A model generated the notes under the pieces. It did no database searches, was not told the DNA's origin, and saw only the letters and a program-made list of their open reading frames with translations. From Ignavibacteriota bacterium (GTDB lineage Bacteria > Bacteroidota > Ignavibacteria > Tepidaquicellales > Tepidaquicellaceae), in contig CAVVJW010000036.1 in the NCBI GenBank assembly GCA_963748665.1, positions 19,655 to 83,654 on the forward strand: a DNA stretch of 64,000 nucleotides. The letters are read 5' to 3'. Positions 14,206 to 54,944 of this stretch are shown in pieces. Position numbers and translations under genes: made by a program. How positions within the stretch are numbered: position 1 is the stretch's first letter; each line of letters starts with the position of its first letter.

Positions 14206-14258
14206 TATAAATTGTAAGATGAAAAAGATAAAATTATATTTTAAATAATTTAATGGGC

Positions 14259-14280
14259 GGCCAGGTCTGAATAACAAACA
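14259..14280 (+). promoter_or_regulatory. Candidate shared cis-element (22-mer), copy 2, 50 nt upstream of the DszB-like gene
   Basis: 19 of 22 identity with 7661-7682. Confidence 0.25.
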
Positions 14281-14329
14281 ATTGCTCAAACCACTGGTCA
14301 GGTTACGAGCAACATAAAGGATATAGATA

Positions 14330-15530: not shown

Positions 15531-15582
15531 TAAATAAGTCGTGTAAAACAAAATTAATTTGCCAACTTAAAAACAAATAATT

Positions 15583-15777
15583 ATGGCAAAGGAAATAAAA
15601 AAAAGCGACGGTCCGGCCTGTGCATGCGGCAGGGGTGACCTGTATGATGAATGGAAGAAGTTGAATGAAGGCAAAAAGGAAGAAGGTTTTGAATCAACTG
15701 ACCCCAAACGTTCAGATGATGTTGTCAAAGACGAACATAAGCAGGAACAGGCCAAAAATGAAACAAAGAATGAGTAA
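15583..15777 (+). CDS. Small charged hypothetical protein (64 aa)
   Basis: ORF only. Lys/Glu-rich with a CACGRG element, sitting in an operon-like position. No family recognised. Confidence 0.3.
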   Translation: MAKEIKKSDGPACACGRGDLYDEWKKLNEGKKEEGFESTDPKRSDDVVKDEHKQEQAKNETKNE

Positions 15778-15917
15778 AGATTAAGATTGAGTGGCGCCAA
15801 AGATATTAAATTAATGGTTGGTGCCATTTTAAAAATGAACTCTATCGGCAGAGTTATGGGCAGAACAAAGTTTCAGAATATACATGTAAAATTTATAAAC
15901 CATGTTAATGTAAGAAT

Positions 15918-16727
15918 ATGAGTGTAGAAATCAAAACAGATAGTTTTTCAACGATACTGGTTGACAGGAGAGATAACGGATTGGTAGTAGTAACACTAAA
16001 CAGACCAGAAGAAGGTAACGCCGTTAACACAGATATGGGGCTTGAACTTCTTGATCTCTGGACTGACCTTGTACGCAACAATGACGGACTCCGCTGCGTC
16101 ATATTAACCGGAGCAGGTGAAGAAGCATTTTGTGCCGGCGGAGATATGAAGCAACGAAAAGGAATGTCGGAATATGCATGGCGGCATCAACACGAGATAT
16201 TCGAGCAAGCTTTATGGACTATGATGGAATGTCCTGTTCCGGTCATAGCTGCTGTCAACGGCAAAGCATTTGGCGGCGGGCTTGAAATGATTCTTGCAGC
16301 CGATTTTGCATATGGAGTTGACAATGCCAAGTTATGGTTCCCGGAAGTGATGATAGGAATACTGCCTGGTGTGGGCGGCACAACTACATTGCCGCGTATA
16401 GTTGGAGAGCATCGTGCTAATGAAATCATATTAGCAGGTGGTGCATTTGGTTCTGCCGAAGCGCTGGAATGGGGTATATTCAATCGTGTTTGCAGTATAA
16501 AAGAATTGATGCCGGCTGCGATTGCAACTGCCGAAACTATAGCAGGTAACGCTCCTCTGGCAGTGCGTCAAGCCAAGAAAGCAATACACGAAGGTCTGCA
16601 AATGGATGTACGTACTGCACTTCGTTACGAAGTCGAATGTTACAACCGTCTGACGGGAACTGAAGACAGAGCAGAAGGTACACTGGCATGGAACGAAAAA
16701 CGCAAACCCGTTTTTAAAGGACGGTGA
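15918..16727 (+). CDS. Enoyl-CoA hydratase/isomerase (crotonase) family protein
   Basis: 269 aa. Contains NRPEEGNAVN, FCAGGDMK and AAVNGKAFGGGLEMILAADFAY. Confidence 0.85.
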   Translation: MSVEIKTDSFSTILVDRRDNGLVVVTLNRPEEGNAVNTDMGLELLDLWTDLVRNNDGLRCVILTGAGEEAFCAGGDMKQRKGMSEYAWRHQHEIFEQALWTMMECPVPVIAAVNGKAFGGGLEMILAADFAYGVDNAKLWFPEVMIGILPGVGGTTTLPRIVGEHRANEIILAGGAFGSAEALEWGIFNRVCSIKELMPAAIATAETIAGNAPLAVRQAKKAIHEGLQMDVRTALRYEVECYNRLTGTEDRAEGTLAWNEKRKPVFKGR

Positions 16728-16786
16728 ATTTGTACCCGAACATAACAAGTATAAAATATTAAATTTTTAAAATTAAAATATAAAAA

Positions 16787-18496
16787 ATGAAAGTAATTAT
16801 TATCGGAGGAGTTGCAGGCGGAGCATCGTGTGCAGCACGTCTGCGCAGGCTTGATGAAGAAGCCGAAATTTTAATGGTAGAAAAAGGACCTTACATTTCG
16901 TACGCAAACTGCGGACTGCCTTACCACGTGGGTGGTGTGATTGAAAAAGAATCCAACCTTCTGTTGGCAAATGAACAGATGTTCCATGCGATGTTTAATA
17001 TAGAAGTACGAACACGCTGTGAGGCTGTCGAAATTTCACCGAAGGAAAAGACTGTAAAGTTGAAAGATTTAATTAAGGGCGAGATCACTACTCATTCTTA
17101 TGATAAACTTGTTCTTTCCCCGGGTGCTGTTTCTTTTCATCCGTCATTACCGGGCATTGACCTTCCCGGTATTTTTCACGTGAGAACTGTTCCTGACGTA
17201 AGAGAAATACGTGAGTGGGTTGAAAAAGGAAATCCGTTTCTTGCAGGAATGTACAAGTATTCAGGATTTCAGGCGATGAGACCTAAGACGCGGGCAGTTG
17301 TTGTTGGCGGAGGGTTCATCGGACTTGAGATGGCAGAAAATCTTGTGCATCGTGGTTTTGAAGTAACGCTTTTACAGAGGGGAGACCAGGTATTGGCTCC
17401 TATGGATTTAGAAAATGCACGTGTAGTTGAATCTCTGTTAGTAAAGCACGGTGTTAAACTTGCTCTAAACGACGGAGCCGCAGGTTTTAAACAGGCTGAG
17501 AACGGTGCCATAAATGTAGAAACTGATTCAGGAAAAACATATAAGGCTGACGTAGTTATACTTGCCATAGGTGTCCGTCCTGATACAACTCTGGCAAAAA
17601 TGGCAGGACTAGAAATAGGTGAACGCGGAGGAATCCGTGTAGATGAACATATGCGTACAAGCGACACGGATATATTTGCAGTAGGTGATGCGGTTGAAGT
17701 TAAAGATTTTGTTACGGGGCAATGGAGTTTGGTTGCTTTGGCAGGACCTGCAAACCGTCAGGGACGTATTGCAGCAGACGTTATCGCAGGACGCAATTCA
17801 ACTTATCGCGGTACACAGGGTACTTCAATTATAGGTCTGTTCGGAGCCGCTGCTGCCTGGACCGGGGTCAGCGAAAAGACACTAATAAAAAACGGTGATA
17901 CAGATTATGAAAAGATATACCTGTATCCTAATTCACATGCAGGTTATTACCCTGGTGCTAAAACAATTGCAATGAAAGTTATATTCAGAAAATCAGATGG
18001 CAGACTTTTGGGGGCACAGGCGCTCGGTTTTGACGGAGTTGATAAACGTATAAGTGTAATAGCTGGAATGCTGCAAATGGGTGCTTCAATATACGACCTT
18101 GAAGAAGCAGAACTTTGTTACGCTCCCCAGTTTGGAAGCGCAAAAGATCCTGTAAACTTTGCGGGTATGGTTGCTGCTGATGTTCTCAGAAACGATATGC
18201 CTCTTACACACTGGGATACTGCAAGAAACGGATTCCTTCTGGATGTACGGGAACCTATGGAATTAGCAGTAGAGAATGTTCCTGGTGCGGTAAACATTCC
18301 AATGGGTCAGATAAGAGCACGTCTTGATGAACTACCGCGGGACAAAGAGATAAATGTAATTTGCCGTTCAGGCGGACGCGCTTACTATGTTACGCGGATT
18401 CTATTGCAGAATGGCTTTAAAGCTAAAACTATATCTGGCGGCATGATTTCACTCGCACATAATTATCTGCTTGATGCTAAATTGAAAGAGGAGTAG
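16787..18496 (+). CDS. CoA-disulfide reductase / NAD(FAD)-dependent persulfide reductase with C-terminal rhodanese domain
   Basis: 569 aa. Contains IIGGVAGGASCAARL, the redox Cys in SYANCGLPY, and a C-terminal rhodanese loop CRSGGRAY. Confidence 0.85.
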   Translation: MKVIIIGGVAGGASCAARLRRLDEEAEILMVEKGPYISYANCGLPYHVGGVIEKESNLLLANEQMFHAMFNIEVRTRCEAVEISPKEKTVKLKDLIKGEITTHSYDKLVLSPGAVSFHPSLPGIDLPGIFHVRTVPDVREIREWVEKGNPFLAGMYKYSGFQAMRPKTRAVVVGGGFIGLEMAENLVHRGFEVTLLQRGDQVLAPMDLENARVVESLLVKHGVKLALNDGAAGFKQAENGAINVETDSGKTYKADVVILAIGVRPDTTLAKMAGLEIGERGGIRVDEHMRTSDTDIFAVGDAVEVKDFVTGQWSLVALAGPANRQGRIAADVIAGRNSTYRGTQGTSIIGLFGAAAAWTGVSEKTLIKNGDTDYEKIYLYPNSHAGYYPGAKTIAMKVIFRKSDGRLLGAQALGFDGVDKRISVIAGMLQMGASIYDLEEAELCYAPQFGSAKDPVNFAGMVAADVLRNDMPLTHWDTARNGFLLDVREPMELAVENVPGAVNIPMGQIRARLDELPRDKEINVICRSGGRAYYVTRILLQNGFKAKTISGGMISLAHNYLLDAKLKEE

Positions 18497-23338: not shown

Positions 23339-23462
23339 ATTAAATGTATAAATAAATGAAATATCTTTTAAATTATTCAGAAAGGAAATTTAAATATGAA
23401 ATTAAATGTATATATTAATGAAATATCTTTTAAATTATTCAGAAAGGAAATTTTAATATGAA
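23339..23462 (+). repeat. 62-bp tandem duplication of the sulfatase RBS/start region
   Basis: 23339-23400 and 23401-23462 are near-identical (attaaatgtata.ata.atgaaatatcttttaaattattcagaaaggaaattt.aatatgaa). Each copy carries an ATG (23396 and 23458). Confidence 0.85.
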
Positions 23463-25830
23463 GCAGAAAAAAGAATTAAACCGTGAAGTTCTTCCGATAC
23501 CGGATAAAGCTTATAAAGGTCTTATCACGTATGATGCAAAAGACCCTGATATGAAATTTCCGCCTATTGAACAACTGCGCCCGCCAGATGGTGCGCCTAA
23601 CGTTCTTGTCGTACTTATCGATGATGCAGGATTCGGTTCTACGAGTGCATTCGGAGGTCCCTGCCATACACCAAATGCAGAAAAACTTGCAGCAGAAGGT
23701 CTGAAATATAATCGTTTTCATACAACTGCTTTATGTTCTCCTACAAGACAGGCACTATTAACGGGACGCAATCACCATTCAGCAGGAATGGGCGGTATTA
23801 CGGAAATTGCAACAGGTGCACCGGGTTACTGTTCAGTTCTGCCTAATACTATGTCCCCGCTTGCACAAACACTTAAACTTAATGGTTATTCAACTGCACA
23901 ATTCGGTAAGTGCCACGAGGTACCTGTGTGGCAAACAAGCCCTGCGGGTCCGTTTAATCAATGGCCTACAGGCGGCGGCGGTTTTGAATACTTCTACGGA
24001 TTTATAGGCGGAGAAGCAAATCAATGGTACCCGTCACTTTTCGAAGGTACAACCCCTGTTGAACCTGAAAAGACACCTGAGGAAGGTTATCATCTTATGG
24101 AAGATATGACAGACAAAACACTGGCATGGATTGGACAACAGAAGGCGCTTGCCCCTGATAAACCATTCTTTATTTATTTTGCTCCGGGTGCTACACATGC
24201 CCCGCATCACGTTCCGAAAGAATGGGCAGATAAATACAAAGGTAAGTTTGATGCAGGATGGGATAAACTTACGGGAAGAGACATTTGCACGTCAGAAAAA
24301 ACTCGGCGTTATTCCAAAAGACTGCGAACTAACTGCACGTCATAAAGAAATTCCTTCGTGGGACGAAATGCCCGAAGCATTCAAACCAGTGCTGCGCAGA
24401 CAAATGGAAGTCTATGCCGGTTTTATGGAATACACTGACCATCACGTGGGACGCTTGTTCGATTTCATAAGCAAACTCGGTATTATGGAAAACACTCTTA
24501 TTTATTATATAATCGGTGATAACGGTGCATCTGCAGAAGGTTCTATTAATGGCTGTTTTAACGAAATGAGTTATTTCAACGGACTGCAGTCTTTCGAAAC
24601 ACCTGAATATTTAACGGAGAGAATAGATAAACTTGGCGGACCGGAATCATACAACCACTATGCAGTAGGCTGGGCTCACGCAATGAACACTCCTTATCCA
24701 ATGGACTAAACAGGTTGCTTCTCACTGGGGCGGAACACGCAACGGTACTATCGTTCACTGGCCAAAAGGAATTAAGTCAAAGGGTGAGATTACGCTCACA
24801 GTTCTCTCACGTAATCGACGTGGCTCCAACGATACTTGAAGCTGCAGGATTACCTGAACCGCATTCCGTAAACGGTGTTCAGCAAAAACCTCTTGAAGGT
24901 GCAAGCATGCTTTATTCTTTTGACGATGCAAAAGCAGCAGAGCAGCACGAGACTCAATATTTTGAAATGTTCGGCAACCGCGGCATATACCACAAAGGCT
25001 GGACTGCCGTAACGAAACACGTTACACCATGGATTCAGGCACCGAGTATTCCGCTTGACGACGACGTATGGGAACTTTACGATACAACAAAAGACTGGAG
25101 CCAGGCAAAAGACCTTTCAAAGGAAATGCCTGAGAAGCTTCACGAACTTCAGCGCCTGTGGATCATAGAAGCAACCCGCTATAATGTGCTTCCAATAGAC
25201 GACAGAATATTTGAGAAATTAAATCCCGATACGGCAGGCAGACCTGTACTTATAAAAGGAAATACACAGCTCCTTTTTGGCGGTATGGGGCGTTTATCCG
25301 AGAATTGCATTCTTAATCTGAAAAATAAATCACATTCAGTAACTGCTGAAATCGTAGTTCCAGAAGGCGGAGCCGAAGGAGTTATTATTGCTCAGGGTGC
25401 AGATATTGGCGGCTGGAGTTTATACGCAAAAGGCGGTAAACTCAAGTACTGTTATAATTGGGGCGGACTAAAACACTTTTATGTTGAAGGAACAACTCCA
25501 ATTCCTGCGGGTGAACATCAGGTGCGTATGGAATTTGAATATGCAGGCGGTGGTTTGGGCAAGGGTGGAAAAGTTACACTGTTCACTGACGGCAAGAAAG
25601 TCGGCGAAGGTAAGATTGCTGCTACATTAGCAATGATATTTTCAGCCGATGACGGATGCGATGTTGGGAAAGATACCGGTTCTCCTGTTTCTGATGATTA
25701 TGGCTCGAAAGGGAACCACTTCAACGGAAAGGTTAAAGGAATACAACTTGCTATAGCAGATTCAGCAATAGATGAAGATCATTTAATTAATCCTGAAGAT
25801 GCCATAAGAATGGCAATTGCAAGACAATAA
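23458..25830 (+). pseudogene. Cys-type (formylglycine) arylsulfatase 1, about 790 aa, three frame breaks as assembled
   Basis: ORFs 23458-24345, 24131-24709 and 24715-25830 plus a bridging frame (QWTKQVASHWGGTRNGTIVHWPKGIKSKGEI). Contains LIDDAGFG and CSPTRQALLTGRNHH. Breaks at about 24271, 24700 and 24792. Confidence 0.85.
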
Positions 25831-31715: not shown

Positions 31716-32661
31716 TTAATTATTTTTTCTGCCAAACGCTTCATCTATGATTGATTGAAGATGTGCAAGCGATTCCTGTGTTGGCGGTTGAAAATCAGCT
31801 AACTCATATACCTGCCCAAGATATCCGTATTTTGTTTCTCCGAAACGCATATAAGGCAGTAACTCATAATCAACTACATTCTTATAAGGTTTTATGAATT
31901 CCAGCACGGCGCGAACGTGCTCTTCATCATCATTCACACCTGGTATTATCGGTGTGCGTGCGATGAACTTCTTATCAGGAAATGTCTCGTAAGCTCTTCT
32001 TTGATTTTCAAGAATTCGTTTGTTATCAACACCTGTCCATTTTTTGTGGCGTTCAGGAATTGTACATTTGTGATCGTGAAGCACGAAATCTACATGAGGT
32101 AATACTTTTTCTACGAAAGACCAGGGAACATTGAAAGCTGTTTCGATTGCAGTATTAATTCCACGACCATGTGCTTCTTTAAGAAGTGCAGATGTGAAAT
32201 CAGGCTGAACTAGACATTCTCCGCCGCTGAACGTCAATCCACCGCCTGATTGCCTGTAAAAGCTGCAATCTGCTTCCACCTCGGCAAGTACTTCATGAAC
32301 AGTCATAAGTTTGCCAAACATACACAGCGCCTGTGTCGGACAAGCCGAAATGATTTCTTCAGAGCAATCGGATGCAAGATCCCAGTTCACTTTAATTTTA
32401 TCATCTTCACCATCTGTTGCGTAAAATGCTCCTTCAGGAAAGGGAGGCTTCAGACAAAGTCCGCATTGTTTCGCGCCTATGCATTTCGCGGGATTATATG
32501 CAAGCTCAGATTTTAGTTTAATGCTCTCAGGGTTACTGCACCATTTGCACCTGAGCGAACACCCCTTCAAAAACACAGTGGTTCGGATGCCGGGCCCGTC
32601 GTGCAGACTGAAATGTTGTACATTCAGAACGATTCCTTATTGGTTGATCTTTTGTGCTCAA
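31716..32661 (-). CDS. Glycyl-radical enzyme activating enzyme, copy 2; 5' end uncertain or frame-broken
   Basis: Track ORF 31716-32576 begins inside the conserved motif. The same frame continues upstream as GIVLNVQHFSLHDGPGIRTTVFLKGCSLRCKWC up to a TAA at 32637-32639. A TTG at 32661 (shifted by one base, overlapping the PFK-fold D stop) would give MSTKDQPI.. if there is one break near 32638. Confidence 0.75.
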
Positions 32662-33825
32662 AGTACCATTTCCCTTCCAAGAGAAACTCCAAGCATCTGG
32701 GTTATCTTGATGAACGTGCTGTCTGTTGGTACCGTACGTATTTTATTAATGCATTCAGCAAGAGAAACAAACTTAAGCTCCGGCGGTTGGAAATACTACC
32801 ATAACACCACTTTGATCGTTGTCTATAGCACGTACAGCTCCTGTACCGTAACCTAAAGCAAGCTGAATGTCAACAACTGTCAGACCTCCGGCCTGTACGA
32901 GTTGATTCAGAACAATATGTTGTAGTATCAAGATCTAAGATTCTTCTCAACTCAAGAGCAACATTAGTTGAGGCAAACCCGGATTTATCTATTATAAAAT
33001 TACCGTCACCTTCTGTTGAAAGAGGGGATAACGAAGCATTAAAGTCGCTGATTTTAATTTTTTCATCAGCAAGGCTCTTCACGACAGGTCTTGCTCCTTC
33101 AGCAACCACCACCAAACCATAACTTTTCCCATTCTTTATCTTCTCATTGAAATGATTAGCTATAATATTGATGTCGTAAGGAATTTCAGGAATCAAAACA
33201 GCGTCTGCTAACGAAGCCAATCCAGCTTGTAAAGCAAGCCATCCGGCATTAGCTCCCGGGACTTCCACGACAGCAATTTTATGCGAAGCAATGGCTGCCT
33301 TTTTTATCCGGTCAAGCAATTCCGTTGTGTGGTTAAGCGCACTATTAAATCCGTAAGAAAGTTGTGTTGCCCATATATCATTCTCAATTGATTTTGGAAT
33401 GCATACAGATCTCATTCCTTTGCGGTTTAGCTTTAACAGTAGTACTCAAAGACCTGCCTTCAACCACAGAAATAACCGCATCAATTTTATTTGTCTTTAA
33501 GCTTGCAAGAATTTTTTCCGACCGATCTTCTTCTTCAACTATACCGTCTTTAATCGTTGTTCTAACGTTAAAAGGAGTCTGAACTGAAGGCATTGGAAAT
33601 TAAAGGTCTGCCGTTTATATTATCCTCTATCGGCTGCGGTATCCTAACGATTCCTCCGAATGGATATCTTTCTGGAAAAAGCAATCCGTTAAAACCATCA
33701 TGAATTCCATAAACTTCCCATCCGAGTTTATCAGCAGCTATTTGAACTCCTGCAATTACATGATTGATTCCGGGAACGAAGCCGCCGCCAATATTGATCG
33801 CCACCCGTTTTATTTTATTGTTCAT
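32658..33825 (-). pseudogene. PFK-family protein with degenerate kinase motifs, paralog D; at least 4 frame breaks as assembled
   Basis: Fragments 33568-33825, 33384-33593 and 32870-33415 plus two further frames down to TGA 32658-32660. Contains GGGFVPGINHVIAG, CIPKSIENDIWAT, KIAVVEVPGANAGW, LVQAGGLTVVDIQLALGYGTGA and INKIRTVPTDSTFIKITQMLG. Breaks at about 33580, 33400, 32914 and 32788. Confidence 0.75.
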
Positions 33826-33870
33826 TTTTATTGAATTTTAATAATCAAGTTTTAAAATCATATTTCTCAG

Positions 33871-34686
33871 TTAATGTTTTGATTTCAATTCTTCCATCCT
33901 ATTTCTGATCACAGACCTTAGGTCTTCACCAAATCCGGTAAGAACACCTCCATCAACAGCAATCATTTGACCTGTTATTGTTGCTGCACGATCGCTTGCC
34001 AGAAAACTGGTCAGTTCTCCTATTTCTTCTATGGTCGTAAAACGTCCAAGAGGAATCAGACGTTTAATTGTTGACTGCCGGTACTCATGCGTAGTATTTG
34101 CTTCCATCAAAGGAGTTTGAACTCCACCCGGGCATATTGAATTTACCGTTATATTTGAATCTGCAAGCTCCCATGCCAGGTGCTGTGTTAATCCAGACAC
34201 ACCATGTTTAGATACTGTATAATCAAGGCCTCCAAAAAAAGTCATCCTTACACCTGCAACGGAACCAATGTTTACAATGCGGCCCTTGCCCTGTTTTATC
34301 ATTTGCGGAATGACAGCCTGACAACAAAGGAATACACCTTTCAAATTGACACCTAAAACACGATCCCACTGATTTTCCGGTATATCTATAGCCAGGGTGG
34401 GAGGACCTTCAATACCGGCATTATTAACAAGTATATCGATGGCTCCAAATGCTTCAATGGTTTTGAAGGCTAATAAAGCAACATCACTTTTCACACTTAC
34501 ATCAGCACCCACCCCAATAGCTTTTCCGCCTGCAGCAATAATCTTTTGCACTACTTCATTGCATTCTTCAGCTTTTCTTGAGTTTACTACAACATTTGCA
34601 CCCTCGCGGGCCAATACCAAAGCGATTCCTTCGCCAATGCCACGTCCCGATCCGGTTACGATGGCTGTTTTTCCTTTTAGTTCCAT
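33871..34686 (-). CDS. Short-chain dehydrogenase/reductase (FabG-like SDR)
   Basis: 271 aa. Contains TGSGRGIG, NNAG and the catalytic YTVSK. Confidence 0.85.
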   Translation of the reverse strand: MELKGKTAIVTGSGRGIGEGIALVLAREGANVVVNSRKAEECNEVVQKIIAAGGKAIGVGADVSVKSDVALLAFKTIEAFGAIDILVNNAGIEGPPTLAIDIPENQWDRVLGVNLKGVFLCCQAVIPQMIKQGKGRIVNIGSVAGVRMTFFGGLDYTVSKHGVSGLTQHLAWELADSNITVNSICPGGVQTPLMEANTTHEYRQSTIKRLIPLGRFTTIEEIGELTSFLASDRAATITGQMIAVDGGVLTGFGEDLRSVIRNRMEELKSKH

Positions 34687-34869
34687 ATTTTTTTATTTGG
34701 GTTTAATATTTTAATATTTATTGATTATTGAACCTGTAAGCCCTGATATATCAAGCTAATTCGTAACATGAAGGCTCAGATTTTTACCTATCTTAATTCG
34801 ACTGTCAGGTAGTTGTCAAATAACATCACTATCAGGCAACATTTATTCTTTTTTAAATTTTTAAACGTA

Positions 34870-34913
34870 TAAACAAAGTGGGGTGAAGAAATTCGTCCGT
34901 TTCTGCACCCCAC
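34870..34913 (-). terminator. Hairpin directly after GRE2
   Basis: gtggggtg (34878-34885) / caccccac (34906-34913). On the minus strand it is followed by tttgttt. Confidence 0.65.
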
Positions 34914-34923
34914 AATACATTAA

Positions 34924-37410
34924 TTATACATTCTCTTCAGTTCTGGCAATAATTTCTGCCTGCTGTGCCGGAGAAAGATCAACAAAATAAGCAGAGTATC
35001 CTGCAACACGTACTATGAGATTCCTGTATTTTTCAGGATCTTTTTGTGCAGCAATCATTGTCTCTTTGTTAATAATGTTGAATTGTATGTGCCAGTGTTT
35101 CAAATCGCACCAGGTGCGAATGATATGCACTATACGCTTGATGCCTTCGGGACCTGCAATAGTGGCCGGAGTAAACTTAAGGTTAATCAGGTCGCCGCCT
35201 CTTTCACGATAGCTTAAGTTCCGTGTGCGTGCCATAGAATTCAGCAACACTGTCGGTCCTTTGGTATCCATGCCATGACTGGCAGAAATTCCTTCTGACA
35301 GAAATTCACTTGCCTTTCTTCCATTGGGTGTTGCCCAGGAAACCTTTCCTGCAGGCATGTGGAAGGTAACGGGGATCTGGCGCATGATGAAGTACTGATC
35401 GTGAGGTTTGGAATTGGCTTTTAAAAACTCCAACGTCATGGTTTCAATTTCAAAACCAATGGCATCTACCCATTCGATTCCATTACCATATTTGGGCGCA
35501 TTCAGGCATAACTGACGAACCACTTCATGTCCTTCCCAATTGGCTTCAATGGCAGTAAGCAACTGATCCCAAGTAAGCTTTTTGGTGTCGTAAATCAGGT
35601 GCTTTACTGCTGCCAGACTATCTATCATGGTTGCTTTTCCAAGTATCTCAAGACAGGAATGATCAATGGCACCCGGAAAATATTCACCATGCGAATGCAG
35701 GTCGCGGCAATGTTCCATTGCGATATCGCTGAGCATGGAAGTCTGCGGGCAGGCAAAATACGTAGGCTTGATCCGCAGGGCAGTGTATTGCTGAAGCAAT
35801 GAATGTTTACACAGGTTCAAAAATTGCTTGCAGAACGCATTCCAGAAGTCTTCATAAGTGACGAAATTTCGGGGGTCACCGGTTTGCAGACCAAACTGAA
35901 TATCTTTGAAAATCTTCATCTTGCCGTTACGAACCGTCATTTCCAAGGCAGCACCTGCATTTGCTAAACCATTACCCGTGCAACCGGTTTCGCGATTGAT
36001 CAGGCGGTTCTCACAGCAACCTGAGATGTTCCAGTCGTTGGCTTCCTGCATAGTAGCACCGGCTGCCAAATAGAATGGTATAACATTCTCATCGTTCAGA
36101 AGCTTTGGATAACCCTTACCATCCTGAAGAACTTCAGCAATGTAATGTAAAAGTCTTTCAGGAGTATTGGCATGAATCCTGACACAGGGTTCGGGACAAG
36201 TGATCTGCAATCCACGGGTTGATTCAAGGATCAGATAAGTAAGTTCGTTTGTGGCATCGAGGCCTTCCGGGGTTTTCCCGCCAAGGCAAACATCCTCAAA
36301 CTTGGAAAAACCTTCGGTACCGGCTGCCATTACAGGGTTCAATTTTATTTCTGTACACTGGAACATGTTCAGCCATACGCAATGCAGCAATTCTATGGCA
36401 GATTCTTCTGTGATAAGGCCTTCAGCCATATCCTTGCGATAAAACGGCAGGAAATACTGATCCCAGCGACCCTGTCCCATGGCACTCGAAGTATGTTCTA
36501 TGCGGTTAAACATTTGTCCCCACCATTGTGCCTGCAAAGCTTCACGGAAGTTGCGTGCAGGGTGTTCAGGCACTTGTTCGCATGTTTCAGCGATCTCAAT
36601 CAATTCTTTTTTGCGCTGAGCATCCTTTTCGTTTGCAGCCATTTCCCTGGCAAGTTTTGCGTAGCGGTTCGACCAAATGGTCATGGCATCACATGTCAGA
36701 ATTACTGCCTCAAGGAAAGGACCTTTCTTGCTGATATCACTGGGGTTGGATAATTTTTTCAGTTTTTCCTGCGCTTCTTCTTTGATGCCTTTTACGCCCT
36801 TTGTCAGTATCTTATTCCAATCCGATGTCCAGTTTTGTGAATGGCGCATGGTGGAACTACCCAGAACAATGGCTGTTGCCATTATAGTATTGTTGCGATC
36901 AGGTCCGTACATCACAAAACGGGTAGGTTCGGGCAATGCCTTTACATAATTGGTAGCATAATCTTTTCCTGTCCAGTAAGGTGTGAGAAATTCCGTAATT
37001 ATTTTCTCATCTTCCTCGGTAACGACTACTTCGCCGGCTTTGCCTTTATTTTTTCTGAACATTTCCACACCGGCAGGCATAACACTGCCATCTAATTCAG
37101 GGTATGCAATGCCCCATCTGCCATGCCAGGTGTTCGGGCGTCCTACGATAAGCTCACCGGGGAAGATGGAGATAAGGGCGGTTTCGGCATAATGCTTTTC
37201 AGCCATAGCCCAGCGCAGACTAATGGGTTGACCCACGGTTTCCTTCATCGATTCGGTGAAGGCTACAGCCCGATCCAAAGATACGCGTGGCGGACCATAT
37301 GATTTTATTGTTTCATACATTTTCAGTACCCTGTCGGATACTTTGCCGTGTAAAACATTTCTTCCTGTTTCAATTGCCTGTTCTTGTGCCGATAAATGTT
37401 TGGTTTCCAT
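34924..37410 (-). CDS. Glycyl radical enzyme, copy 2 (intact, 828 aa)
   Basis: RVAGYSAYF glycyl-radical motif (Gly804 codon at 34999-35001). Cys loop ISGCCENR (GCCE = 36010-36021). Also NAPKYGNGIEWVD and ATPNGRKA. Confidence 0.92.
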   Translation of the reverse strand: METKHLSAQEQAIETGRNVLHGKVSDRVLKMYETIKSYGPPRVSLDRAVAFTESMKETVGQPISLRWAMAEKHYAETALISIFPGELIVGRPNTWHGRWGIAYPELDGSVMPAGVEMFRKNKGKAGEVVVTEEDEKIITEFLTPYWTGKDYATNYVKALPEPTRFVMYGPDRNNTIMATAIVLGSSTMRHSQNWTSDWNKILTKGVKGIKEEAQEKLKKLSNPSDISKKGPFLEAVILTCDAMTIWSNRYAKLAREMAANEKDAQRKKELIEIAETCEQVPEHPARNFREALQAQWWGQMFNRIEHTSSAMGQGRWDQYFLPFYRKDMAEGLITEESAIELLHCVWLNMFQCTEIKLNPVMAAGTEGFSKFEDVCLGGKTPEGLDATNELTYLILESTRGLQITCPEPCVRIHANTPERLLHYIAEVLQDGKGYPKLLNDENVIPFYLAAGATMQEANDWNISGCCENRLINRETGCTGNGLANAGAALEMTVRNGKMKIFKDIQFGLQTGDPRNFVTYEDFWNAFCKQFLNLCKHSLLQQYTALRIKPTYFACPQTSMLSDIAMEHCRDLHSHGEYFPGAIDHSCLEILGKATMIDSLAAVKHLIYDTKKLTWDQLLTAIEANWEGHEVVRQLCLNAPKYGNGIEWVDAIGFEIETMTLEFLKANSKPHDQYFIMRQIPVTFHMPAGKVSWATPNGRKASEFLSEGISASHGMDTKGPTVLLNSMARTRNLSYRERGGDLINLKFTPATIAGPEGIKRIVHIIRTWCDLKHWHIQFNIINKETMIAAQKDPEKYRNLIVRVAGYSAYFVDLSPAQQAEIIARTEENV

Positions 37411-37499: not shown

Positions 37500-37524
37500 T
37501 TATTTCACATTTTCTTTTTCCCAT
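37500..37524. repeat. Direct repeat, right copy (genuine 3' end of the amidohydrolase gene)
   Basis: Matches 31480-31505. The two copies bracket the GRE2 cassette (about 6.0 kb). Confidence 0.8.
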
Positions 37525-38585
37525 TTTCTCACTTTTACTCTTGCATCATCGAACAATCTTTCATAGTTTCCTATGCAGACTTTATATGTGATTTCTTCGC
37601 CAAGTGCTTTCCAGAGCGGGTCGTATGCGTGATAAACGTTTAACTGTTTTTCCTGTTTATCAGGAGCAACATTGTCAGTACCAAACATAAACTTGTCAGG
37701 ATACTTTGTAATTACTTCGGTGGTTTTAGCTATCGATTTTTCTGATGACATCAGCCATTTAGCAGTTTCGTCCCAGGAAAGGTCAAAATAGAAATTCCTG
37801 TACGCGGGGTCTTCAAGCATTTCTAAAAATAGATTTCCCATATCTTCTATTGGTCTTACTACTCTGCCCAAACCAAGATGTGCCCAGACTATCGTTGTAT
37901 TAGGATGTCTTTTTACAAGGTCCTGCATACCTGTTAAATAATTTGGTTTACCCGGTTTCGGGAAAGGATTATCGATATCGTTATGTACAATAGCAAGCAA
38001 ACCCGATTCAGCACAGAACTCAAGAATCCTGTCAAGCGCAGGGTCATAAAAACTGGCTACATCACCTGACACCTTTGATGATACGAATTCTTTATGAATA
38101 GAAAATTCTCCTATACCTGAAAATACTCCGGGAAAAGTTTTCAGGACTCTTTTAATATGGTCTGCTGCGTACATATCCGAAACATTAAACCCAATAATCA
38201 TCGGGTCAAGACGTGCCTGTTTTTCTTTGGGCAGTTTCAAATATTCTGCTGCGATATAAGCATCGCAAAAAGAATAATAATATAACGGAGCATCTGTGTC
38301 AAGATAGTATGTAGGAGCAAAATCTTTTGTTACGCGGTAAGACCAAATCTGCTGAAGAGGAAGTCCGAACACGGTTGAGCGCCCGACTTTATCTCCCATT
38401 ATTGAATCCACATAAAACTCCATACCAATTCCTTCCTGAACGTAATTTGTTAAGTGGAAGTGTGCATCGTGGAATAAATATTTTCCTTTATTGTCCTGTG
38501 CATTAACAAAGTTTATATTAGAAAATACGCAAAGCATGATAGTAACCACTATCAATTTGAGGAGTAAAAATGATTTATTATTCAT
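37500..38585 (-). CDS. Secreted metal-dependent amidohydrolase-family (TIM-barrel) hydrolase
   Basis: 361 aa. Signal peptide, an HFH motif (DAHFHLTNY), and later VHND and AHLG motifs. Confidence 0.6.
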   Translation of the reverse strand: MNNKSFLLLKLIVVTIMLCVFSNINFVNAQDNKGKYLFHDAHFHLTNYVQEGIGMEFYVDSIMGDKVGRSTVFGLPLQQIWSYRVTKDFAPTYYLDTDAPLYYYSFCDAYIAAEYLKLPKEKQARLDPMIIGFNVSDMYAADHIKRVLKTFPGVFSGIGEFSIHKEFVSSKVSGDVASFYDPALDRILEFCAESGLLAIVHNDIDNPFPKPGKPNYLTGMQDLVKRHPNTTIVWAHLGLGRVVRPIEDMGNLFLEMLEDPAYRNFYFDLSWDETAKWLMSSEKSIAKTTEVITKYPDKFMFGTDNVAPDKQEKQLNVYHAYDPLWKALGEEITYKVCIGNYERLFDDARVKVRKWEKENVK

Positions 38586-38631
38586 AATAATTTAATCAAA
38601 GTTTCAAAATTTTTTAAATATACTAAAAGTT

Positions 38632-40068
38632 TTAAAAGTTAACCATAAAGTCCGTATGGAATATACTGCCTGTAGCACCTAATGAATATGGGAGCGATAA
38701 GGCACCGACAGGACTTTTGTACATATATATGTATTGAAAATTCCAGCGAAATGCCTGATTTTTCCACGGAAAGAAATTTATACCAAGCCGTGTATCCCAG
38801 GGATTACCGTATCCTCCAAAAACCTGTGAGAAAGTAGAATACACCTGGAGACTTTTTTGTATTGCCATATAAGAAGCCATTAACTGAAATCCCTTGTCAT
38901 AAAGAGTGCCGAAACCGAGTGAGTCCAAACCATCACCCGTAAATTTATTTAACCATCTGTAATAAAATTCGCCCTCAAGTGCAAATCCTTTATATTTGAA
39001 CCCGGCATCAATGGTTGACATGTTGTAAGTGGCAGTTTTTATATTTATGCCACTGCCAAAAAGTTCAGGTGTAAAAATTGGAGACCCGTCTGAAACACGC
39101 AGTTGTACATTCTCGAATCCGTCAGAATTTGGCTGGCTCTCACGATCTTCAACGCTATAAGTAAAATGACCTGCAATCCTGGTAGCAATTTTATTATGAT
39201 TTTCAAAATCACCAAAATTTGACCTCATACCATACTCACCTGTAGTTGGAAAAAACGTCAATGCACCTGAAAATGTTTTCAATGTGGCATCAAGCTGCCC
39301 GGCATCAACTCCAAACTGACTGATATTGTTGCCGCCCATAATGTAGTAATTTAGTTTTTCTGTAATCCTACCGTTAACCCAGAGACCTGTTGTATAAGAT
39401 GGTCTGAAGAATTCATCTGCTATGAGGCGGTTATCTACAGTGAGCCAGAAAGGAAAGTTGCCTTCCGTACTGCGCACACCCGGAAGTGAATTTATACCTG
39501 CACCAAAATTAAAGTTATCATTTATTCTGTATTGCAGGTTCCCTGCTACAACCACCTGCGAAAGCTGCCCAAGTGATGTGTTACTCGTCCAGACATAGAA
39601 GAGATACCTGAAATCAGGATCCATAACCCAGCCAAAGAATTTAATATTTACTTTATTAAGTTGTATATCCTGTCTTCTTTTAATATCCGTAACTTTTCCA
39701 AACGTGTTAGTATAAGTTTCATTAAGCTGCTTCTGGTTTAAATAGCGTATGTATGAAAACACGCCGAAGTTGAGAGAACCTTTTTCAGCATTAACAACTG
39801 TAAAACCTGAATTAGGGGTATAGTCACCTAATGTCTTACCAGAATCCTTTGCATTATACGTTGTTAATTTGTTCAACGTCAATTTACCGGGATTCGATTC
39901 TTTCATTGAAAACCCCGGTTTGTTATCTGCAAACCGGGTATAATCTGTTGATTGATTGTTCACATCCCGTAAATTTATGTTTATGTCGTCTTTCTGACTG
40001 TATGTATTACTTGTAAACAGAAATATAATAAAAAATACGAACAATATATTTATTCTTCTATGCCTCAT
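38632..40068 (-). CDS. Outer-membrane porin, paralog of 40093-41494
   Basis: 478 aa. Signal peptide, C-terminal ...HTDFMVNF, and blocks shared with its neighbour. Confidence 0.55.
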   Translation of the reverse strand: MRHRRINILFVFFIIFLFTSNTYSQKDDININLRDVNNQSTDYTRFADNKPGFSMKESNPGKLTLNKLTTYNAKDSGKTLGDYTPNSGFTVVNAEKGSLNFGVFSYIRYLNQKQLNETYTNTFGKVTDIKRRQDIQLNKVNIKFFGWVMDPDFRYLFYVWTSNTSLGQLSQVVVAGNLQYRINDNFNFGAGINSLPGVRSTEGNFPFWLTVDNRLIADEFFRPSYTTGLWVNGRITEKLNYYIMGGNNISQFGVDAGQLDATLKTFSGALTFFPTTGEYGMRSNFGDFENHNKIATRIAGHFTYSVEDRESQPNSDGFENVQLRVSDGSPIFTPELFGSGINIKTATYNMSTIDAGFKYKGFALEGEFYYRWLNKFTGDGLDSLGFGTLYDKGFQLMASYMAIQKSLQVYSTFSQVFGGYGNPWDTRLGINFFPWKNQAFRWNFQYIYMYKSPVGALSLPYSLGATGSIFHTDFMVNF

Positions 40069-40092
40069 TTATAATAATATAAAAAAAATTAT

Positions 40093-41494
40093 TTAAAATA
40101 ATATATCCGAACCCAGAGAAAATGTGGGTCCTGTTTGTCCTGCAACATAGTACCCGAATGATGAACTTGCCGAAGATTTATCAACATAAATAAAATGGGC
40201 ATTCAGTCTCCATGCTCTTACGTGCAGAGGAAAATAATTCAGACCGAGTGATATTTCGTATGGATTCCTTTCAAATTCATCGAACATATAAGACCCGGAA
40301 ACATAAGCGTTTAAAGTCTTTGGGATTACCATATGCGACATATCAACCTGCACCATCTGGTCAAAAATTGAGTTTCTCCATCTGGCAGGGTCATAAATTG
40401 TTCCTGTATAATGAAATTTCGAAAGGTCTCTGAAAAAGTACTGTGCCTGAAAAAAGAAACCCTTGTATTTGAATCCGAGGTCAACAGAGCCCATATTAAA
40501 ATCACAAGATAAAAGCTGTACACCCGGCTGGAGGGAAGACCTTTCGAACAGATTAACTCCGTCAGAAAGTTTTACCTGAGTATTTCCCGATGTAGAATCG
40601 CTTGCCGGACTTTGCTTCGAATCACGAAAATTAACGAATGATACACCAAATCTTGATGCAAGTATCTGATGATTCTCAAAATCATGATGTCCTCCGCGCG
40701 GACCGAATTCGCCTGTAGTCGGCATCCACATAAGACTTGCGCTTGCGGAAAGGTCACGGGTAAGAGCGTCTGATTTTGCTCCCAGAATACTGAGGTTATC
40801 ACCAACCGAAATATTATAATGTACTCTTGGAAGAACTTCACCATATGCCCAGACAGACTCTGTGAAACCGGGCCTTAGAGACTCATCACCCAGTTGTCTG
40901 TCAGTTCCGTTCCAGTACGGAAACGAACCTTGCAGCGACCTTATTCCAAGGTTTGGTGAAACACCCGCCCCTATTTTGAGCCAATCAGCTACTCTATACT
41001 GCAGATTACCGAATAAAAGAGTTTGCTGTGTGGTACCAAGTCCCCAGACTGTAAGGTTATATCTTAAATCTTGTACCCCTAAAAACCCTGTCAGCCATAT
41101 CATTCCTCTGTGAAAATAAATATCATTTCTTCCTTTTACTCCACGCATTCTTCCCTGGTTATCAGCATAAGTATCTTCATTAGGAATCTGGTCAATCCAT
41201 CTAACCATACCGTATCCGCTGATGTTTAAACTTCCAAATTTTGTTTTCACTAATATCAAAACCTCTGCCGGGAGTGAACTCACCTGCAATCCAGTTTTGA
41301 TAAGTAGTATCTTTTGTTAATATTTGTTTTACTGCCGATAATGTATCATCACCGTAAACATTTGTTTGGGGTTCCTCCTGAGAATATGCAATAACAGGTA
41401 ACAATCCAATAATGAAAATTAAAACAACTAAATTCATTATAACTGAATTATATAAATTTGAATGCAGATTAATGTTGTGTATTTTTAGATTCAT
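40093..41494 (-). CDS. Outer-membrane porin; one frame break
   Basis: ORFs 41201-41494 (signal peptide) and 40093-41289 join at the A4 run 41258-41261. C-terminus ...SLGSDILF. Confidence 0.55.
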
Positions 41495-54400: not shown

Positions 54401-54401
54401 T

Positions 54402-54944
54402 CTATGCGTACGTTACTTGTGATTTATCAAATCTTTTTCTCGAGATCTTGTTCCCAATATCTACTTTTACAATTCCATTTTCTATTAATACCGGAAAATA
54501 ATCCAGGGCCGAAGGTGCAGGCGGATTTAGTACTTCACCGTCAATTTTAAATGCCGAAGAATGACACGGACAGACAAATTGTTTTTTACCATCTTCCCAG
54601 TTTATTGAACATCCGAGATGTGTGCATCTGAGAGATAGTGCAAGAAACCCCCCATCAAGAAGCCGTGCCAGATAAAACCGCTTGTTTCTGAACGCTGTTA
54701 CAGAATTCTTTTGAAACGACTCCACAGCTCCGGCTTCTGTAAGCTGTTTAGGTTCTGTCTTGCGGCTATTTTCTTTTCCTGAAAACAAGAAGCCCAAGAA
54801 TACTGCTGCAAATTCAAACACCGCAACAGCCATAAGTCCTTTCCATAATTTTTTCAGAAAATCACGCCTGCTCTCATCTCTTGGAGGCAGGGGAATATTT
54901 GCTGCTTTTTTTGTCTTTAAGTTTTTATTATTCAGCTTTTTCAA
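54402..54944 (-). CDS. Rieske [2Fe-2S] protein
   Basis: 180 aa. Tat-like SRRDFLKKL and CTHLGC...CPCHSS. Confidence 0.85.
   Translation of the reverse strand: MKKLNNKNLKTKKAANIPLPPRDESRRDFLKKLWKGLMAVAVFEFAAVFLGFLFSGKENSRKTEPKQLTEAGAVESFQKNSVTAFRNKRFYLARLLDGGFLALSLRCTHLGCSINWEDGKKQFVCPCHSSAFKIDGEVLNPPAPSALDYFPVLIENGIVKVDIGNKISRKRFDKSQVTYA

Follow-up and report, generated by a model that had tools for sequence, protein, structure and literature searches.

The second cassette in the 64,000-nucleotide stretch of Ignavibacteriota DNA analysed here (the window) is an oxygen-sensitive radical-enzyme operon that combines a glycyl radical enzyme (GRE), a reductase, a phosphofructokinase (PFK) look-alike without kinase motifs and an activating enzyme (AE) (Table 1). 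No description of this four-gene operon was found in the papers searched. The order that the original prediction had read on the minus strand (GRE2, a hairpin, a spacer given as 240 nt and measured here as 237 nt, the SDR, PFK-fold gene D and AE2) was borne out, as was its view that GRE2 and the SDR are uninterrupted whereas PFK D and the 5' end of AE2 are frame-broken as assembled. The GRE / hairpin / PFK-fold / activase order is also repeated at 0.3-4.9 kb (cassette 1), making this a second cassette with shared logic. Beyond the window, the GRE-SDR plus PFK-like-AE module is syntenic in about 25 genome loci, in hosts from more than ten phyla (Planctomycetota, Acidobacteriota, Cyanobacteria, Verrucomicrobiota, Nitrospirota, Gemmatimonadota, Desulfobacterota and others), and synteny of four genes in that many genomes is beyond chance. 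The same-strand genes upstream of GRE2 (37500..41289), separated by gaps of 24-89 nt, encode proteins in which a signal peptide and C-terminal Phe residues can be read directly, and an Amidohydro_2 homolog also lies near a cluster elsewhere (L011); these upstream genes are possibly co-transcribed with cassette 2.

Table 1. Features of cassette 2 and the genes upstream of it, in window coordinates.
Feature	Position	Strand	Description
GRE2	34924..37410	(-)	Intact 828-aa ORF; PFL-like and Gly_radical domains
Terminator-like hairpin and U-rich tail	34869..34913 (stem 34878-34913)	(-)	Directly 3' of the GRE2 stop
Rest of the 237-nt GRE2-SDR spacer	34687..34868	(-)	Sigma-70-like hexamer pair at 34819-34790
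Classical SDR oxidoreductase	33871..34686	(-)	271 aa, intact; adh_short_C2 match
PFK-fold gene D	32658..33825	(-)	About 387 aa once repaired; four +1 frame breaks; kinase motifs missing
AE2, GRE-activating radical-SAM enzyme	31716..32661	(-)	314 aa after repair; one extra base near 32638
Secreted Amidohydro_2 protein	37500-38585	(-)	Amidohydro_2 E = 3e-11
Two paralogous outer-membrane-like proteins	38632-40068, 40093-41289	(-)	Upstream of GRE2

GRE2 matches two Pfam domains (PFL-like, E = 1.8e-159; Gly_radical, E = 5.5e-29), and its active-site residues are present, with Gly804 in RVAGYSAYF, Cys465 and Glu467 in GCCE, and Arg189 and Arg677. In a PDB search the best solved relatives were IseG, IslA and HpsG (E = 1e-226 to 1e-236, the latter for IseG), whereas the matches to YbiW and PflD were much weaker (about 1e-97 to 1e-99). 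Identity to these three C-S lyases is 44-46% for GRE2 and 44-49% for its family, against 61-73% among the lyases themselves. The family is tight: identity to the window's GRE2 is 69-76% among the members recovered by protein search and 63-76% among those of the genome loci, with a minimum of 63% across more than ten phyla, cyanobacteria included. Residues G805, C468, E470, R189 and R678 (IslA numbering), with roles assigned after PMC8473560 and PMC13450708, are invariant across 119 family members. Gln193, catalytically essential in C-S lyases (PMC13450708), is Asn in all 119, and S190H, I192Q, W374F, V680I and F682 to Ile/Val are further family-wide differences from IslA/IseG. Judged by sequence, the GRE2 family is an uncharacterised, separate clade and a deep sister of IseG, IslA and HpsG. 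IslA/IseG (PDB 7KQ3, 5YMR) provide the best sequence match and have the fold, the motif around the radical Gly, the Cys and Glu of GCxE and the two anion-binding arginines (R189/R678) in common with GRE2, and their activase belongs to the same TIGR02494 subfamily as AE2; cassette 2, however, adds the SDR and PFK-fold genes and is without a TRAP transporter or microcompartment context. HpsG (PDB 6LON) resembles GRE2 in carrying Ile/Val at the F682 equivalent, consistent with a substrate of C3 size or larger, but it is only 44% identical, its Arg-Gln-Arg triad is incomplete in GRE2 and, in contrast to HpsG systems, the GRE2 hosts are not sulfite respirers.

The two cassettes of the window proved less alike than had been claimed. 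The long identical blocks on which GRE1 and GRE2 had been placed in one subfamily do not exist, the longest common peptide being 8 aa and the longest common DNA run 12 nt. In tblastn the two align with 30.5% identity across 453 aa and with 39% across the last 138 aa at the C-terminus, and the best solved relative of GRE1, itself frame-broken as assembled, is HypD (E = 1e-84), so that a single subfamily is refuted. AE1 and AE2 are 67% identical, and the PFK-AE unit is common to two GRE families that share only 30% identity. An origin of the cassettes as recent in-genome paralogs was considered and rejected, since GRE2, SDR and AE2 have orthologs in a Planctomycetota MAG at 75%, 77% and 72% identity, respectively (L001 for the SDR), whereas GRE2 is only 30% identical to GRE1 and AE2 only 67% to AE1. 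The hairpin is strong (-20.5 kcal/mol, z = -4.5, 0/200 shuffles as good) and is followed 3' by a U-rich tail reading UUUGUUUAU; when conservation was checked in orthologous loci it was not conserved, which confines it to this genome and removes it from any shared family syntax. The GRE2-SDR spacer is unusually long, orthologous spacers being mostly about 35-90 nt with a few longer, and its sigma-70-like hexamer pair, matching 10/12 consensus positions, gives only a weak indication.

We then weighed whether the frame breaks reflect the organism or the assembly. PFK D is split across frames -2/-3/-1/-2/-3, with breaks near 33576, 33443, 32923 and 32793, and was repaired by frameshift-aware alignment to four intact relatives, with no in-frame stops. 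AE2 as assembled is without a usable start, the extra base parting its TTG start (32661) from the gene body; deletion of one A restores an ORF whose N-terminus, STKDQPIGIVLNVQHFSLHDGPG, matches orthologs. Repaired AE2 scores 314.9 bits on TIGR02494 (cut-off 174), carries the CSLRCKWC cluster motif and, within that subfamily, comes nearest to the HpsH type. It is unlikely that cassette 2 is dead here, genuine one-base insertions having turned PFK D and AE2 into pseudogenes and left GRE2 and the SDR as intact remnants. Such decay would account for five breaks packed into 1.2 kb (window average roughly 0.26 per kb) next to 3.3 kb of GRE2 and SDR with none, for the broken PFK-like paralogs A and C, and for the low conservation of PFK D, which retains 84% of the sites that at least 90% of the family share (intact orthologs, 84.5-99%); this value is, on the other hand, nearly that of the most divergent intact orthologs. 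However, natural gene decay should leave deletions and stop codons as well as insertions, whereas the 11 breaks resolved in the window, which are spread over six unrelated gene families, are without exception +1 nt and free of in-frame stops, several of them adjoining short homopolymers. Genes outside the cassettes are affected as well: the DcaP porin is broken (resolved as +1), as are the sulfatase and probably the NMT1-like and SulP genes, judged from split Pfam matches only. Similar bursts of breaks also occur in otherwise highly conserved orthologs of sister long-read MAG assemblies (L029, L030, L024 and L035). Since every resolved break is +1 without stops and some lie in unrelated genes, a long-read assembly artefact is indicated, as the original prediction had cautioned; errors of this kind most likely introduced the five extra bases seen in PFK D and AE2, and cassette 2 is therefore probably intact in the organism.

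The PFK fold is clear in the PFK-like proteins (Pfam E down to 1e-60), and the fragments of PFK D match Pfam PFK; against the NCBIfam PFK models, every score fell below cut-off. No member examined has the Mg-ATP loop GGDGS or D103, with family-wide replacement of GGDGS by V-G-x-R/Q-x, D127 by E, R171 by E, R243 by Y and H249 by Q/P. Because the Mg-ATP loop and catalytic and phosphate-binding residues are lost, the PFK-like protein is not a phosphofructokinase. It keeps S125, E127, D129, E222 and R/K252, part of the sugar-binding site, and may on this residue pattern still bind a sugar or even act as an atypical kinase. The gene directly downstream encodes an Fe-S protein (activase or Cys-rich ferredoxin-like) in 95 of 96 cases: among the 74 metagenome cases it is an activase in 43 and a Cys-rich Fer4 protein in 30, and all 22 GRE2-type genome loci have an activase there. 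PFK-to-AE junctions show a 4-nt overlap in 36/57, as do the PFK D stop and AE2 start of the window. In GRE1-type clusters there are two or three PFK-like paralogs, and the partner of each is an Fe-S protein, not a pathway enzyme. We infer that the PFK-like protein would serve the activase as a non-kinase partner, acting as a scaffold or as a subunit that senses a metabolite, although one locus with GRE-SDR-AE and no PFK-like gene within 8 kb (L019) counts against this putative partnership.

Among known proteins, the PF00365 family, including the sulfofructose kinase SqiK, shares the PFK fold and part of the sugar-phosphate site with the PFK-like protein, and hetero-oligomeric PFKs likewise have several paralogs side by side; GGDGS, D103, D127, R171, R243 and H249 are, however, not conserved in the PFK-like protein, which is genetically coupled to Fe-S proteins and not to glycolysis. 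The regulatory alpha subunit of plant PPi-PFK, a non-catalytic PF00365 paralog, is a candidate parallel. GRE systems can need dedicated small proteins from the same operon, with BSS beta/gamma, HPAD gamma and GrcA/YfiD as precedents (PMC13450708, section 4.2), but these are small Fe-S or spare-part GRE binders whereas the PFK-like protein is roughly 385 aa and activase-linked. If the PFK-like protein were instead a real atypical kinase, GRE2 would act on its phosphorylated product, a sugar or polyol phosphate held by both Arg residues and His190, in parallel to the radical glycolysis of YbiW/PflD. The clear fold and retained sugar-site residues agree with this, as does the precedent of YbiW and PflD, GREs that accept sugar phosphates (6-phospho-anhydrohexitols, followed by an FSA-type aldolase; PMC13450708), and of SqiK, a PF00365 kinase acting on a sulfosugar (PMC9594981). 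In two Verrucomicrobiota loci the cassette even lies beside phosphatase, HAD, TAL_FSA, ROK kinase, 6PGD, G6PD and 6PGL genes, reminiscent of the sugar-metabolism clusters and downstream FSA-type aldolase of YbiW/PflD, and GH63-like and glucose-dehydrogenase-like genes are frequent neighbours. An atypical kinase is nevertheless rather unlikely given the missing GGDGS, D103, R171, R243 and H249, the pairing of GRE1-type paralogs with Fe-S proteins and a single module serving two such divergent GREs. The TAL_FSA context is limited to one lineage, and YbiW/PflD, which are 1,5-anhydrohexitol-6-phosphate C-O lyases, fall in a different, far more distant clade and use a PTS, not a PFK-like protein.

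Comparison with orthologous loci confirmed that the SDR is a genuine cassette member, adjoining the GRE2-family gene in nearly every locus holding both. It matches adh_short_C2 (Pfam E = 1e-62) and has the TGxxxGIG (as TGSGRGIG), NNAG and YxxxK (Y156) motifs, and the N-S-R-K after strand beta-2 suggests that it uses NADP(H). The alcohol/carbonyl intermediate previously proposed from its presence is a candidate that fits the data. Near the cassette in orthologous loci we found a GH63/MGH1-like hydrolase (11 distinct loci), a Zn glucose-dehydrogenase-like protein (about 10), CMD-family (18-19) and BKACE (9-10) proteins, an MIP channel (7) and, in L117, an acetoacetate-decarboxylase fragment; the GH63-like, Zn glucose-dehydrogenase-like, MIP, BKACE and CMD neighbours point to sugar or beta-keto-acid chemistry. 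GRE2 might then be a radical dehydratase or lyase for a glucoside-released hydroxy-carboxylate (glycerate from glucosylglycerate, or a 3-hydroxy-4-X-butanoate), its beta-oxo acid product being processed by the SDR, BKACE or CMD-family enzymes. Arg pairs can bind carboxylates, and the best models for the SDR are glucose 1-dehydrogenase, FabG and 3-hydroxybutyrate-dehydrogenase. We regard this reading as quite improbable: the neighbours differ between lineages, the GH63-like protein resembles characterised GH63 enzymes only distantly and has no PDB match at E = 0.01, cheap non-radical routes exist for glycerate, and a 2026 review reports no GRE acting on such hydroxy-carboxylates.

That GRE2 is an HpsG/IslA ortholog (a DHPS or isethionate sulfite-lyase) in an ordinary sulfonate-respiration module is very improbable. 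In its favour, IseG, IslA and HpsG are the top PDB matches, GRE2 retains the pair of Arg residues that bind sulfonate, the window contains SulP, rhodanese and sulfatase genes, and the top NCBIfam model, the HpsG equivalog NF048011, scores 964.7 bits, close to its cut-off of 1000. This score nevertheless falls below the cut-off, the clade is separate, the pocket changes are fixed, cyanobacteria and Acidobacteriota are among the hosts, the window's sulfur genes sit with cassette 1, and the other genome loci showed no homologs of CoADR-rhodanese, SulP, MBL or AhpC less than 10 kb from GRE2. Sulfite-handling genes were likewise not detected at GRE2-type loci in other phyla and, with Gln193 also replaced, a sulfonate substrate is therefore not secure.

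Returning to a GRE with a non-kinase PFK-fold partner, family chemistry allows a sequence of steps to be proposed. AE2 would place a radical on Gly804, which would pass to Cys465 and allow this residue to take a hydrogen off the carbinol carbon of the substrate, a small anionic hydroxy compound gripped by Arg189 and Arg677 and by the family-specific His190, Gln192 and Asn193. Glu467 would deprotonate the substrate hydroxyl, and a group on the neighbouring carbon (sulfite, or another such as hydroxide or phosphate) would depart to leave a carbonyl product. The SDR, probably NADPH-dependent, would reduce this product or, alternatively, make the hydroxy substrate from a carbonyl precursor, while the PFK-like protein, translationally coupled to the activase, may assist it as scaffold or metabolite sensor. 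The gene content, conservation and motifs of the cassette and the nature of its frame breaks are read directly; the substrate class and the parts played by the SDR and PFK-fold protein are what we infer from them.

To conclude, we consider it an even chance that cassette 2 is a copy of a widespread, uncharacterised GRE 1,2-eliminase system that would act on a small anionic hydroxy substrate with the help of a non-kinase PFK-fold partner.

The second glycyl radical enzyme (GRE) cassette lies on the minus strand, and ORF calls, Pfam scans and RNA folding gave the order claimed in the original prediction: GRE2, a hairpin, a spacer, a short-chain dehydrogenase/reductase (SDR), the phosphofructokinase (PFK)-fold protein D and the radical-SAM activase AE2 (see table). 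Since cassette 1 has the same GRE / hairpin / PFK-fold / activase order (GRE1, a hairpin of 15 bp + U6, PFK A, AE1), the predicted layout is accurate. AE2 has the CX3CX2C motif as CSLRCKWC. The SDR carries TGSGRGIG at residue 11, NNAG at residue 88 and Y156-T-V-S-K (adh_short E = 2e-58), the TGxxxGxG, NNAG and Ser-Tyr-Lys signatures of a classical enzyme, in which N-S-R-K after strand beta-2 suggests NADP(H) as the cofactor. The hairpin behind GRE2 folds at -20.5 kcal/mol (z = -4.5, equalled by 0/200 shuffles); a simple terminator scan missed it, the loop limit of the scan being smaller than its loop. That the hairpin belongs to the cassette syntax was not borne out in orthologous loci, and a conserved regulatory element was ruled out by the 10 orthologous GRE-SDR spacers folded, none of which had significant structure. 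The 237-nt spacer of the window is likewise not conserved, orthologous spacers being mostly 36-90 nt.

Features of the two GRE cassettes and of their surroundings in the window
Feature	Position	Strand	Description
GRE2	34924-37410	minus	intact, 828 aa; PFL-like PF02901 E = 1.8e-159, Gly_radical PF01228 E = 5.5e-29
Hairpin after GRE2 stop	34878-34913	minus	13-bp interrupted stem, then UUUGUUUAU
SDR	33871-34686	minus	intact, 271 aa, classical SDR (ORF list, Pfam scans)
PFK D fragments	32658-33825	minus	pieces of a PFK-family gene (Pfam scans)
AE2, ORF as listed	31716-32576	minus	radical-SAM activase; listed start inside conserved N-terminus
Resolved frame breaks	2128, 2291, 2987, 9361, 10747, 29380, 32638 (AE2), 32793, 32923, 33443, 33576 (last four PFK D)		window-wide
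Cassette 1 cluster	301-18496	plus	larger conserved cluster
GRE1	301-2723		first gene of cassette 1
Fer4 proteins	6164-7420, 10150-11275	plus	about 400 aa
AE1-like remnant	7531-7593	plus	21 codons between Fer4 and SBF genes
Outer-membrane-like paralogs	38632-41289	minus	34% identical, no Pfam match
Sulfatases, SPASM-domain maturase-like gene	23458-25830, 57675-59561, 59970-60911, 62433-63887		several sulfatases, at least one split by frame breaks
Multihaem cytochrome/TPR protein, cytochrome b	52097-56298

GRE1 and GRE2 had been placed in one subfamily on account of long identical blocks. The longest peptide common to the two is in fact 8 aa (VPEHPARN), and tblastn gave 30.5% identity over 453 aa, with 39% over the C-terminal 138 aa. 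The best solved relative of GRE1 is the hydroxyproline dehydratase HypD (E = 1e-84), and those of GRE2 are IseG (5YMR), IslA (7KQ3) and HpsG (6LON), with E = 1e-226 to 1e-236. AE1 and AE2 are 67% identical; in a neighbour-joining tree AE1 grouped in one clade with activases of GRE1-type clusters (mean identity 81%), and AE2 among those of GRE2-type clusters. GRE2, SDR and AE2 are each nearer to their Planctomycetota MAG orthologs (75%, 77% and 72% identity, respectively) than to any cassette 1 protein. The identities and the activase tree therefore rule out a recent duplication, and the two cassettes represent separate lineages rather than the recent paralogs considered in the original prediction.

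In a protein search with GRE2, 8,000 candidates were scored and 2,591 of them reached E <= 1e-50. The top 120 matches share 68-76% identity with GRE2 and come, by source name, from taxa that include Phycisphaerae, Syntrophorhabdaceae, Desulfobacterota, Phormidium, Competibacteraceae, Verrucomicrobiota, Acidobacteriota and Eremiobacterota. When one genome was scanned for each species, 29 loci were obtained, four of them cyanobacterial, sharing 62-78% identity with GRE2 (63-76% where the match was full-length). The RVxG motif of the GRE superfamily is present as RVAGYSAYF, with Gly804 invariant in 119/119 members, and the CxE motif of GRE 1,2-eliminases is invariant as G-C465-C-E467 (GRE2 numbering). 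For comparison with the C-S lyases IslA, IseG and HpsG, the three solved sequences were transcribed from search alignments and aligned with family members. The GRE2 family shares 44-49% identity with these three, which are 61-73% identical among themselves, and it forms a branch of its own apart from them. GRE2 scored 964.7 bits on the NCBIfam HpsG equivalog NF048011, just under the cut-off of 1000. By both measures GRE2 lies outside the C-S lyase clade.

In the active site, the alignment numbering agrees with the residue assignments of PMC8473560 and PMC13450708, and in IslA numbering Gly805, Cys468, Glu470, Arg189 and Arg678 are all kept in the family. Position 193, however, where the C-S lyases have a Gln that is catalytically essential in IslA (PMC13450708), is Asn in 119/119 members, leaving the sulfonate-anchoring triad Arg189/Gln193/Arg678 incomplete, with both Arg invariant. 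Further pocket changes are Ser190His (118/119), Ile192Gln, Trp374Phe, Val680Ile and Phe682 to Ile or Val. The residues kept and changed thus point to a predicted CxE 1,2-eliminase whose anion pocket would be akin to, yet systematically unlike, the sulfonate pocket. In a June 2026 GRE review the C-S lyases listed are IslA/IseG and HpsG alone, HpfG is given as a DHPS dehydratase, and no PFK-type partner of a GRE is named (PMC13450708). Our literature searches on a PFK-type partner, on BKACE/CMD/GH63 co-occurrence and on new sulfonate GREs returned no description of the GRE2 family.

Gene order around GRE2 is itself conserved. Genome loci contain two recurring pairs, arranged as GRE-SDR-PFK-AE or PFK-AE-GRE-SDR; the PFK-like and activase (AE) genes are adjacent in every locus with both, and GRE and SDR in nearly all, the exceptions being L033, with a BKACE gene in between, and L018, with just a weak SDR match elsewhere. 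One such locus (L001, GCA_035913315.1) has gene calls for ABM, GRE (832 aa), SDR (279), PFK (386), activase (324), an SBF transporter (299), a GH63/MGH1-like hydrolase (920) and a Zn glucose-dehydrogenase-like protein. In a Thermodesulfobacteriota MAG (L019, 9977-14505) GRE, SDR and activase occur without a PFK-like gene within 8 kb, which shows that not all loci of the family have the latter. Flanking ORFs were clustered, and together with Pfam scans and additional look-ups this identified as neighbours a two-repeat CMD/AhpD-family protein (18-19 loci), the SBF transporter (about 13), the GH63-like hydrolase (11), for which a PDB sequence search returned no matches, the Zn glucose-dehydrogenase-like protein (about 10), BKACE (9-10) and a MIP channel (7), with sigma-54 or two-component regulators also recurrent. 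A sugar-phosphate context is confined to Verrucomicrobiota and absent from other phyla: in two loci (L119 and L014) the genes after the GRE2 cassette are SBF, a histidine phosphatase, a HAD hydrolase and a TAL/FSA-family aldolase, together with a ROK kinase and the pentose-phosphate genes 6PGD, G6PD and 6PGL.

The PFK fold is supported by PF00365 matches of both D fragments (E = 1e-7 and 1.7e-35) and of the intact paralog B (1.4e-59), one of four such paralogs in the window (A, B, C and D). In HMMER alignments to PDB PFKs, however, the Mg-ATP loop 'viggdgs' reads 'svvgpra' in the PFK-like protein, 'tidnd' reads 'svend', 'mgr' reads 'lge' and 'lghvqrgg' reads 'lgplvrgg'. A census of 41 members, numbered on what we take to be the E. 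coli PFK reference sequence, found D103 and G104 lost, D127 and R171 both replaced by Glu, R243 by Tyr and H249 by Gln/Pro, with S125, D129, E222 and R/K252 kept. The family thus lacks the GGDGS/GGDD Mg-nucleotide loop, Asp127 and Arg171/Arg243/His249, and all NCBIfam PFK models score under their cut-offs (TIGR02483, 208.6-250 vs 430.55; NF002872, 201-232 vs 253). As judged from these residues, the protein is predicted to be no phosphofructokinase.

Its genomic partners suggest a different role. A pattern scan of metagenome contigs found 80 loci, and among the 74 PFK-like genes whose downstream sequence was long enough, the next gene encodes a GRE activase in 43, a Cys-rich protein of about 400 aa containing two [4Fe-4S] motifs in 30 and something else in 1. 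In GRE2-type genome loci the activase directly follows the PFK-like gene in 22/22. PFK-to-AE junctions overlap by 4 nt in 36/57, the others having gaps of <=13 nt, and the PFK-AE unit is common to two GRE families that are just 30% identical. From this synteny, that is the partner genes and the sharing of the unit by two GRE families, we infer a role for the PFK-fold protein alongside an Fe-S partner, in activation or electron delivery, and not on the carbon substrate. A residual sugar-binding site may alternatively indicate an unusual kinase or a sensor. A fuller version of the Fe-S-partner role, which we put forward as a speculation more likely to fail than to hold, is that this kinase-less protein is a dedicated partner of GRE activases and of the Cys-rich ferredoxin-like protein, gating or scaffolding radical installation as a novel type of GRE accessory component, and that it serves at least two uncharacterised GRE families, of which that of GRE2 would carry out a new elimination with an anionic substrate in cyanobacteria, Acidobacteriota, Planctomycetota and other environmental phyla.

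The cluster around cassette 1 begins with GRE1, PFK A, AE1, PFK B, a Cys-rich Fer4 protein (418 aa) and SBF, and continues with PFK C, a second Fer4 protein, a second SBF, an AI-2E transporter, a rhodanese, an NMT1-like protein, an enoyl-CoA hydratase and a CoADR-rhodanese. Its core, GRE1-PFK-AE-(PFK)-Fer4, recurs in >50 metagenome loci, often with CoADR-rhodanese, SBF, SulP, GH63-like and ZnGDH genes. GRE1 belongs to another uncharacterised GRE family, with HypD as its best PDB match and scores under all NCBIfam cut-offs. Each Fer4 gene lies directly 3' of a PFK-like paralog. In the encoded proteins the N-terminus is winged-helix-like and is accompanied by a CHCCGCCC motif and by two [4Fe-4S] motifs, with Pfam matches to ferredoxin motifs only. 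The 21-codon remnant is 85.7% identical to AE1 residues 294-314 at the C-terminus, and appears to be left over from a third activase gene. On the minus strand 5' of GRE2 are a secreted Amidohydro_2 protein and two outer-membrane-like paralogs, which may feed cassette 2. The paralogs end in Phe as in outer-membrane beta-barrels, and the 398-aa one has apparently lost its N-terminus through another frame break. The nearest named relatives of the window's cytochrome b are from Ignavibacteria (67-69% identity).

Frame breaks in PFK D and at the 5' end of AE2, with GRE2 and SDR intact, had been predicted from the assembled sequence, and frameshift-aware alignment of intact related proteins to the DNA confirmed them. 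Four +1-nt corrections in PFK D restore 385 codons without a stop, and removal of one A in AE2 restores a 314-aa ORF. The repaired AE2 has a TTG start in a 4-nt overlap with the PFK D stop, an N-terminus (STKDQPIGIVLNVQHFSLHDGPG) that agrees with orthologs, and 314.9 bits on the GRE-activase model TIGR02494 (cut-off 174.35). Further +1 breaks affect GRE1 (two) and PFK A, PFK C, the second Fer4 gene and a DcaP porin (one each). All 11 resolved breaks are single-base insertions, with no deletions and no nonsense codons relative to intact relatives. This uniform direction, the lack of nonsense codons and the unrelated genes hit form the pattern of a systematic consensus error, and we consider an assembly artefact the probable explanation. 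Split Pfam matches show a sulfatase broken and NMT1-like and SulP genes probably so, the last lying outside the 11 because its reference is only 25% identical. No common sequence motif was found at the 11 breaks, whose positions are accurate only to about 10 nt; several adjoin CCC, GGG or TTT runs. Bursts of breaks also occur in related long-read loci in otherwise highly conserved orthologs, for example a GRE in five pieces (L029) and one split into 610 + 119 aa (L035). Against an artefact, however, the five breaks within 1.2 kb of cassette 2 are far over the window average of about 0.26 per kb (a rough count), and PFK D keeps 84% of the family positions conserved at >=90%, compared with 84.5-99% in intact orthologs.

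Given the observed catalytic residues, module and conservation, a reaction can be proposed by extension of established GRE eliminase chemistry. AE2 would cleave SAM to install a radical on Gly804, and the resulting Cys465 thiyl radical would take the carbinol hydrogen of an anionic substrate held by Arg189 and Arg677, together with His190/Gln192/Asn193. Glu467 would take the hydroxyl proton, the vicinal leaving group would then be lost and the product radical would regain hydrogen from Cys465. The SDR would either reduce a carbonyl or supply the hydroxy substrate. As to the anion, we tentatively place a sulfonate first, at somewhat below even chances, on the basis of the closest homologs and the retention of both Arg; this reading is weakened by tblastn, which found no homologs of CoADR-rhodanese, SulP, MBL or AhpC within 10 kb of GRE2 in other GRE2-type loci. 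A hydroxy-carboxylate, to which the GH63/MGH-like, BKACE, CMD and acetoacetate-decarboxylase neighbours would point, is rather unlikely, and a phosphate ester, suggested by the PFK fold and by the pentose-phosphate neighbours in one lineage, slightly more so. Some other anion is the least probable.

To conclude, cassette 2 is a copy of a GRE system that is conserved and for which the literature searched gave us no published description. A GRE eliminase with its activase is in itself a known type and not categorically new; it is the PFK-fold component that appears tied to the activase. GREs catalyse the hardest anaerobic bond cleavages, and every new GRE family so far has led to a new pathway (choline, hydroxyproline, isethionate, DHPS, anhydro-sugars). 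The GRE2 family is large, unusually conserved across phyla including cyanobacteria, and adjoins the clinically and geochemically important C-S lyases with a re-tooled anion pocket. The current annotation of these genes as '6-phosphofructokinase' and 'formate C-acetyltransferase' misleads the metabolic reconstruction of environmental MAGs. Should the PFK-fold protein take part in activation, the two-component picture of GRE systems would change, and this would account for some activases failing in vitro.
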